Source of the DNA: a virus
Length of the DNA: 64,000 nt
Virus record (IMG/VR): IMGVR_UViG_3300033066_002009
Location: 8,961 to 72,960 of that record
Reading direction: 5' to 3' (one strand)
The position numbers and the translations under genes are program-made. Positions 28,045-28,971 of the stretch are shown piece by piece. The number at the start of each line of letters is the position of its first letter. Position 1 is the stretch's first letter. The notes beneath the pieces were generated by a model, which saw only the letters and a program-made list of their open reading frames with translations, was not told the origin of the DNA and made no database searches.

Positions 28045-28971
28045 ATGACGAACACTGCTGAGAGAGTCACACGTACAACGACAGACACAATCGAAATCAC
28101 GCCCAAGCTGGCAGCCAGCTGGAAGAGCCCGCCTTTCCAGCGGCCACTGCGGATCAATGATAAGGTGCGAAACGTCGCACTGAAGATTCGCACAGACGGC
28201 GGCGTGATCCCTGGCATCCTGACGCTTGGTGTCTTGGCGGGGGTGACTTACCTCTTGGACGGCCAGCACCGTCGCGAGTCCTTCTTGATGTCTGAGCTTC
28301 CCGTCGGGTATGTCGACGTGCGTACGCGTCATTTCGACACCATGGCGGAAATGGCCGACGAATACATCGAACTCAATTCGAAGCTCGTGCCCCTCAAGCC
28401 CGACGACATCTTGAGGGGTCTGGAGACCGGCAACGATCACCTCGTCACCCTGCGGAAGCGTTGTCCTTTCATTGGGTACGACAACATTCGCCGCAGCGAC
28501 AAGTCTCCCGTACTCTCGATGTCCAGCGCACTTCGCGTCTGGTTCGGCTCGGAGAAGGAGTCGCCCGTCACTACCAACATTTCCCCCATCGGCGTTAGCA
28601 GCCAGTTGACGGAAATGGAGGTTCAGCAGATGTCCGGCTTCATGAGCATCGCACACGCCGCATGGGGCAACGATCCTGTCAACCAGCGGCTCTGGGGCGC
28701 GCTCAACCTCATTCTCTGCGCTTGGCTGTACAGACGTACGGTGCTCACGCAGTATGGCCGCTCTATCCGTTTGGACAAGGAGACCTTCAAGAAGTGCTTG
28801 ATGTCTTTGTCCGCTGATCCGGATTTTGTCGCATGGCTCATGGGACGCAATCTCAGCGAGCGTAATCGAGCCCCGGCATTCAATCGCATGAAATCGATTT
28901 TCTCAAGACGCATCGAAATCGAGATCGGTAAGAAGGGTGCCCTTCCGGCGCCCGAGTGGTCCCACTCGTAA
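28045..28971 (+). CDS. DGQHR-domain protein (ParB/DndB-like nuclease fold)
   Basis: RBS AAAAGGAG. Motif LLDGQHRRE within a ParB-like N-terminal region. Confidence 0.55.
   Translation: MTNTAERVTRTTTDTIEITPKLAASWKSPPFQRPLRINDKVRNVALKIRTDGGVIPGILTLGVLAGVTYLLDGQHRRESFLMSELPVGYVDVRTRHFDTMAEMADEYIELNSKLVPLKPDDILRGLETGNDHLVTLRKRCPFIGYDNIRRSDKSPVLSMSSALRVWFGSEKESPVTTNISPIGVSSQLTEMEVQQMSGFMSIAHAAWGNDPVNQRLWGALNLILCAWLYRRTVLTQYGRSIRLDKETFKKCLMSLSADPDFVAWLMGRNLSERNRAPAFNRMKSIFSRRIEIEIGKKGALPAPEWSHS

Follow-up and report, generated by a model that had tools for sequence, protein, structure and literature searches.

A conserved DGQHR-motif protein of uncultured phages with a predicted ParB/Srx-fold domain

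The DGQHR gene and its surroundings

The window is the whole 64-kb stretch of DNA that was analysed (64,000 nt). It carries genes for a dCMP deaminase, HNH endonucleases, an M15 endolysin, a DNA ligase, a tail fibre, a gp5-like spike and a head decoration protein, and it is part of a large tailed phage. The gene considered here encodes a protein with the pentapeptide DGQHR, hereafter the DGQHR protein; the features of its locus are listed in Table 1. There is an alternative, longer start at a TTG (28015). We favour the ATG at 28045 because AAGGAG lies 6 nt upstream of it and because a public gene call (P0001) gives the identical 308-aa product.

The hairpin with a T-run that precedes the gene marks the 5' boundary of its transcription unit. 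The terminator-like 3' boundary at 29228-29266 is shared with a convergent gene on the other strand (29280-29807, -). With such hairpins at both ends, the DGQHR gene forms an independent transcription unit. The 87-aa ORF that overlaps its stop codon is probably co-transcribed with it. This ORF had no match in Pfam and is not kept beside homologs of the DGQHR gene, and the lack of conservation makes it probably no functional partner. The antisense ORF at 27892-28656 (254 aa) was rejected as a separate gene: it is a shadow of the DGQHR gene, since antisense ORFs from different loci form clusters only over this gene. The DGQHR protein has no paralogs in the window, as an hmmsearch of the six-frame translation with the profile A1 returned only the gene itself.

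Table 1. Position of the features at the DGQHR locus, in window coordinates.
Feature	Position	Strand	Basis
5' intrinsic-terminator-like hairpin and T-run; 15-nt arms, 93% complementary, 7-nt loop	27797..27840	+	Inverted repeat
Shine-Dalgarno AAGGAG, 6 nt 5' of ATG 28045	28033..28038	+	Sequence
DGQHR protein coding sequence, 308 codons and stop	28045..28971	+	ATG-to-stop ORF, homologs, AF2 model
N-terminal ParB/Srx-fold domain, about residues 10-116, predicted NTP-binding module	28072..28392	+	AF2 model
FQR motif F31-Q32-R33, all invariant; 'QR pair' of DGQHR domains	28135..28143	+	Alignment
DGQHR motif at a beta-strand/helix junction, position of ParB GERR (Box II)	28258..28272	+	Alignment, model
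E106-(F/Y)107-x-x-x-N111, FxxxN motif of DGQHR domains	28360..28377	+	Alignment, PMC4619093
C-terminal all-helical basic domain, residues 117-308	28393..28968	+	AF2 model
87-aa ORF, 16-nt overlap with the DGQHR gene stop codon	28956..29219	+	ORF list
Terminator-like hairpin, flanking T-/A-runs; 16-nt arms, 88% complementary	29228..29266	.	Inverted repeat and terminator scan

Several other features of the window are worth recording in their own right. Positions 33688-43934 are taken up by 39 tRNA genes, of which 37 lie on the - strand; this array explains why the stretch is poor in ORFs. For a phage contig of some 108 kb the set is unusually complete, as 19 of the 20 amino acids are covered; tRNAs for Cys and Met were not called. 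Some 2 kb downstream of the DGQHR gene, this tailed phage encodes an MVP-like protein of 879 aa (30956-33595, +), with a strong match to the shoulder domain of the Major Vault Protein (PF11978, E 1.6e-24) and a weak one to the Vault_3 repeat. A 485-aa protein (21303-22760, +) is a Ser/Thr protein kinase of the eukaryote type (Pkinase, E 9e-29), with weaker matches to ABC1 and APH. A 133-aa ORF (29904-30302, +) weakly matches the tRNA-ligase cyclic phosphodiesterases, i.e. 2H phosphoesterases, below the cutoff (E 2e-4), and matches to a LigD_N 3'-phosphoesterase, a DNA ligase and HD domains are found elsewhere in the window; a theme of RNA and DNA end repair near the large tRNA array is possible. 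At 4640-6211 (+) lie tandem small ORFs of 123, 127, 91, 105 and 117 aa, the first two of which are clearly paralogous, with PWWRR.F.P in common; this suggests that a family of small proteins was amplified locally. Finally, GC3 ranges from 0.73 to 0.95 in the long ORFs between 21 and 41 kb and is about 0.5-0.56 in those beyond 45 kb. This sharp contrast in codon-position GC (20000-42000 versus 45000-64000) suggests either a mosaic origin or different expression classes.

Conservation and distribution of the family

The initial annotation had placed the motif LLDGQHRRE in this gene and considered it diagnostic. The motif is indeed there, at residues 70-78 of an exact 308-codon ORF, and it belongs to a conserved protein. 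At E<=1e-3 the window protein has 891 homologs, the best 120 of which are 50-56% identical to it over 92-100% of its length. An alignment of 33 sequences of the family has 39 invariant columns, among which are D72, G73, H75 and R76, while Q74 is at least 90% conserved. Also invariant in these sequences are F31-Q32-R33, E106, P119-D120-D121, E127 and many Arg and Trp residues of the C-terminal half. The ORF at 28045-28971 is thus a real, strongly conserved phage gene. The DGQHR domain was defined by three elements, a QR pair, the DGQHR pentapeptide and an FxxxN motif (PMC4619093), and all three are present and conserved in the 33 aligned sequences; F107 and N111 are at least 90% conserved, with Y107 in the window protein.

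Yet, the pentapeptide by itself is not diagnostic. A second exact copy lies at nt 5060, in a 71-aa ORF rich in Arg (5048-5263, +) that is read in an alternative frame, although mononucleotide shuffles give an expectation of only 0.025 occurrences per window. The ORF overlaps a better one that has a tandem paralog, and it lacks any ParB-like context; we therefore regard this second copy as a chance match in a non-coding frame. The copy at nt 28258 is meaningful because it is conserved, so that the observation is carried by conservation and fold and not by the motif string.

The family is compact. An exhaustive profile search of 1.84 billion cluster representatives returned only 349 matches at E<=1e-3, and the stricter cutoffs of 1e-10 and 1e-30 left 258 and 190. 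Most of the matches listed are 310-340 aa long and align end to end. The family amounts to about 900 clusters at 90% identity and to 190-350 at 50% identity. With 190-349 matches in 1.84 billion, it stands sharply apart from DUF262, DndB and ParB, all of them very large families. It is also almost entirely phage-borne, and almost only in uncultured phages: it was found in 38 IMG/VR viral contigs versus 5 contigs from 185,579 species genomes, all five of which are MAG contigs and three of which are fragments of 1-2 kb. No match was found in the cultured phages of INPHARED, whether by megablast of the window, by tblastn of the window protein or by tblastn of a consensus-like family member (P0121). 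With the latter as a tblastn query, the 72,556 plasmids of PLSDB also gave no homolog. The homolog-bearing contigs reach 232 kb, and their phage genes include those for a UDG-PolA fusion, ThyX, a Dam-like methyltransferase and a GH25 lysin.

All-versus-all BLAST of the ORFs revealed no conserved neighbour of the DGQHR gene across 46-48 loci, the best true neighbour family occurring in at most 7 of them; two larger ORF clusters were discarded as antisense shadows of the DGQHR gene. Among the 54 called genes of the window, only the DGQHR gene is shared with the flanks of 44 otherwise unrelated loci. One sub-lineage, whose members are about 45% identical to the window protein, does keep a neighbour immediately upstream in six loci (L019, L022, L023, L024, L031 and L046). 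This neighbour is a helix-rich, charged protein of 216-235 aa, with no match in Pfam and absent from the window, which could be a lineage-specific partner of these homologs.

Predicted structure and relation to curated families

A confident AlphaFold2 model built from the family alignment (mean pLDDT 86.5, pTM 0.70) divides the protein into two domains. The first one is mixed alpha/beta, and its DGQHR motif lies between a strand (67-72) and a helix (74-83). Such a fold with a nucleotide-binding motif at a strand-helix junction is what characterises the ParB/Srx superfamily, to which the model assigns the N-terminal domain. Foldseek against the PDB concurs, with ParB, Noc, KorB, PadC, Srx and other ParB/Srx-fold proteins throughout the top 49 matches. 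Among the predicted viral structures of BFVD, the sole close match is an uncharacterised protein of an uncultured Caudovirales phage (E 3e-22, 31% identity), and the next ones are ParB/Srx proteins of phages and giant viruses labelled GmrSD_N, 'DNA-sulfur modification-associated', Noc-like or ParB nuclease. The second domain opens with the invariant PDD...E motif and contains invariant Arg and Trp residues, e.g. in a RLWGxLNLxLCxWLYRR helix. Across the family it is basic (pI around 9.6), whereas the N-terminal domain is near neutral (around 6.8).

The proposed ParB-like nuclease fold thus holds as far as the predicted fold is concerned, but the searches detected no nuclease. In the C-terminal domain we identified neither a nuclease motif nor a known fold; no DNA-binding fold was recognised there, and structural comparison with nucleases gave nothing significant. 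No nuclease family, DUF1524 and HNH included, turned up in the 33 members or in longer representatives of the family; a look for domain fusions in the latter gave one match to DUF7694 and nothing informative. PDB sequences compared with the profile A1 gave only noise (E>=0.5). These results bear on the idea that the protein is an enzyme, either a ParB-like nuclease directed at host or competitor DNA, or an ATP-dependent phosphotransferase of the Srx/SerK/SbnI type acting on a protein or a small molecule. Three invariant acidic residues (D120, D121 and E127) are potential metal ligands, DGQHR has an H-R reminiscent of the CHR in the sulfiredoxin signature (PMC4619093), and 4 of the 33 members weakly match the SerK model. 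Yet, these SerK matches are at E of about 0.1, and a strongly basic, Arg/Trp-rich C-terminal domain suits nucleic-acid binding better than small-molecule catalysis. The nuclease of GmrSD-type enzymes is a separate HNH/DUF1524 domain, which has no counterpart here. We consider an enzymatic role unlikely.

The relation of the family to curated models is distant. At a cutoff as loose as E<=10, the window protein alone had no match in Pfam, NCBIfam or PADLOC. The TIGR03187 and Pfam DndB searches proposed with the initial annotation thus found no DGQHR, DndB or ParB model in it, which is the outcome that the annotation had named as its refutation; its only PHROGs match was insignificant (E=0.39). 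Since these single-sequence scans were empty, we scanned 33 family members one by one. The DGQHR model TIGR03187, whose curated cutoff the window protein does not reach, weakly matched 27 of the 33 at E<=1 (best E 1.5e-4). GmrSD_N/DUF262 (PF03235) weakly matched 29 of the 33 (best E 1.4e-6), in an alignment that spans only profile positions 10-73 of 199, i.e. the FQR..DGQxR core. For the 16 members or representatives covered by the bit scores, all are below the Pfam gathering score of 33.2, the best being 29.1 bits. Other matches were sparser: DndB in 5 of the 33 members with PF14072 (best E 3.7e-3) and weakly in 2 with TIGR03233, DpdB (NF041060) weakly in 5 (best E 3.7e-3), and ParBc_2 weakly in one, the window protein having no ParBc match. 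Judged by these profile searches, no Pfam, NCBIfam, PHROG or PADLOC model seems to capture the family at threshold, and the DGQHR protein is no orthologue of DndB, DpdB or GmrSD.

The distance from canonical ParB (ParB, Noc, KorB, PadC; PF02195) is larger still in sequence, where HMMs detect no similarity. If one follows the order of the motifs, and not a superposition, FQR would take the place of ParB Box I (QPR) and E-(F/Y)xxxN that of Box III (ENxxR). A published survey seeded on PF02195 would probably have missed this phage family. Could the protein nevertheless be a partition ParB that segregates a phage-plasmid prophage? It has the predicted fold, 15 of the 33 members match phrog_1033 ('ParB-like partition protein'), and a match to a LexA/CI-like S24 peptidase in the window hints at a temperate lifestyle. 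But DGQHR replaces the GERRxRA of canonical ParB (PF02195/TIGR00180), the HTH and the C-terminal dimerisation domain are absent, and no ParA/CbiA family was detected among the 57 window ORFs scanned. A search of the 64-kb window revealed no repeated palindrome or parS-like site; the repeated 14-mers that we did find are T-arms of tRNAs and were discarded as binding sites. Neither a conserved neighbour nor, as mentioned, a plasmid homolog was found. A partition role is thus highly improbable.

The other DGQHR proteins (TIGR03187), DndB and DpdB, are closer, and the initial annotation had called the protein DndB-like. This stands at the level of the superfamily: they share the ParB/Srx fold, the QR pair, the DGQHR pentapeptide and FxxxN. 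It does not stand at the level of the family, given the handful of DndB and DpdB matches and the absence of dnd or dpd neighbours. DndB acts as a homodimer that represses by binding to palindromes within its own promoter (PMC4507180). By HMM the window protein is not a DndB; no Dnd family, as expected of a dndBCDE operon, was found among the 57 window ORFs, and none of the neighbours is conserved in the 46 loci. DpdB is a homodimeric, DNA-stimulated ATPase made of an N-terminal ParB-like and a C-terminal helical domain, whose top structural matches also include PadC and Noc (PMC10164549). The likeness to DpdB extends to the succession of an NTPase-like and a helical domain and to size (about 310-400 aa), but the window protein lacks both the HMM match and the adjacent DpdA, a TGT-like transglycosylase. 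Moreover, DndB and DpdB are found in bacterial modification or defence islands, whereas the present family is phage-restricted and has a C-terminal domain of its own.

This likeness raises the possibility of an accessory to DNA modification, i.e. a DpdB-like ATPase or a 5mYOX-type ParB activator working on double-stranded DNA for an enzyme encoded elsewhere. Phage ParB homologs activate thymine dioxygenases (PMC13229309), and like them the DGQHR protein is a phage-encoded ParB fold with no obvious DNA-binding domain and probably a role other than partition. The DpdB-like layout and the weak DpdB matches point the same way (5 of 33; PMC10164549), as do the gene contexts: one homolog adjoins a glycosyltransferase, a second is preceded by a Dam-like methyltransferase and by genes of nucleotide metabolism, and the window has dCMP deaminase, radical SAM, GNAT and kinase genes. 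However, the 57 window ORFs contain no Dnd, DpdA/TGT, Que, TET/JBP, 2OG-dioxygenase or DNA methyltransferase family, and the annotated flanks of the homologs no TET/JBP or 2OG-dioxygenase family. DpdB and the 5mYOX ParBs adjoin their partners, the latter a TET/JBP dioxygenase, whereas no neighbour is conserved in 46 loci here. The 5mYOX ParBs are also canonical, GERR-type proteins with the ParB C-terminal dimerisation domain (PMC13229309), unlike the DGQHR protein. Such an accessory role is quite unlikely in our opinion.

Possible function and evolution of the DGQHR protein

The fold, the motifs and the charge of the second domain lead us to favour, with little more than even confidence, a stand-alone NTP-gated DNA-binding switch or clamp from the DGQHR/DUF262 side of the ParB/Srx superfamily. 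One reason is that the known relatives with a DGQHR-type motif set are nucleotide-dependent DNA-handling proteins. SspE and GmrSD owe their NTPase activity to a DGQQR motif. In our scheme the invariant FQR, DGQHR and ExxxxN motifs would line a pocket of the N-terminal domain, where a nucleoside triphosphate would be bound and probably hydrolysed. Its binding would then gate self-association, presumably dimerisation, or a conformational change, and the basic helical domain would contact DNA. The outcome may be an NTP-dependent switch or clamp that acts on the DNA of the phage or of its host, much as DpdB, DndB, KorB and ParB do. Lacking a nuclease domain and a ParA, Dnd, Dpd or dioxygenase partner, it would act alone or with a partner encoded elsewhere than next to it; its target could be phage transcription or DNA handling, or DNA-directed processes of the host.

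In ParB, Q52 and E93 serve hydrolysis, and R54, R95 and N127 bind phosphate (PMC13229309). By motif order and secondary-structure position, not by superposition, Q32-R33, Q74/H75-R76 and N111 might be the corresponding residues of the nucleotide pocket. CTP, ATP or GTP are ligands of ParB-fold orphans on mobile elements, and ATP and GTP those of a DndB-like protein (PMC12704722). Still, conserved motifs do not guarantee an NTP-dependent mechanism, as mutation of the conserved NTP residues of phage 5mYOX-associated ParBs did not abolish their function (PMC13229309). Similarly, a basic C-terminal domain is by its charge alone weak evidence for DNA binding.

Another interpretation is that of an anti-defence factor, as suggested by the initial annotation. 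Its proposal of an anti-restriction or modification-sensing role is speculative, the present results speaking neither for it nor against it. The DGQHR protein would be a mimic of DUF262/DGQHR proteins devoid of a nuclease, acting as a decoy or a poison of GmrSD, BrxU, SspE or DndI, or interfering with Dnd or Dpd; its N-terminal domain would form heterodimers with the host proteins or occupy their DNA or NTP signals. The protein has the fold and the motifs of defence proteins without their nuclease domain. The family is essentially restricted to phages (38 IMG/VR loci versus the 5 MAG contigs), and the gene stands alone in the way of a moron, flanked by terminators of its own. That a single one of the 54 window genes is shared with 44 unrelated loci is a pattern typical of mobile accessory genes. 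Such mobility among otherwise unrelated large phages would fit an anti-defence role. There are several difficulties with this idea. The similarity to host DUF262/DGQHR proteins is marginal and confined to about 60 residues, and hence specific heterodimerisation with them is unlikely. A conservation of 41-56% in phages of apparently very different bacteria suggests a conserved target and not one engaged in an arms race. PADLOC gave no match, and we found no precedent in the literature. We regard an anti-defence role as unlikely. A more specific version, a new class of anti-defence proteins that would use NTP-gated dimerisation or DNA clamping to neutralise ParB-fold immunity or modification-dependent systems, or to shield phage DNA, we also hold to be unlikely. 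Both the anti-defence and the DNA-modification alternatives are disfavoured by the absence of an adjacent partner and by a similarity to host defence proteins that is only marginal.

The protein itself cannot be a restriction enzyme of the GmrSD type, as it lacks the DUF1524/HNH domain. It further differs from the GmrSD/DUF262 proteins of type IV restriction and related defence (GmrSD, BrxU, SspE, DndI) in having DGQHR where they have DGQQR, in matching their model only through relatives, whose scores are below its gathering threshold, and in being encoded by phages and not by their hosts. Overall, its motifs and domain layout suggest that it works like a ParB-fold NTPase of the DGQHR/DUF262 type, while its features place it outside DndB, DpdB, GmrSD and canonical ParB as these are defined. 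Proteins of this kind are known, since orphan ParB-fold proteins have been documented on mobile elements and phages (PMC12704722). What is new is an uncurated, phage-restricted family with its own C-terminal domain. On present evidence it is an incremental extension of a known superfamily, with no new mechanism.

If the switch or clamp reading is correct, the family would add a phage-only branch to the ParB-fold nucleotide switches that act outside chromosome segregation. The invariant residues of its motifs offer direct handles for mutagenesis. The high conservation of the family among large environmental phages that are otherwise unrelated implies a function both useful and portable.
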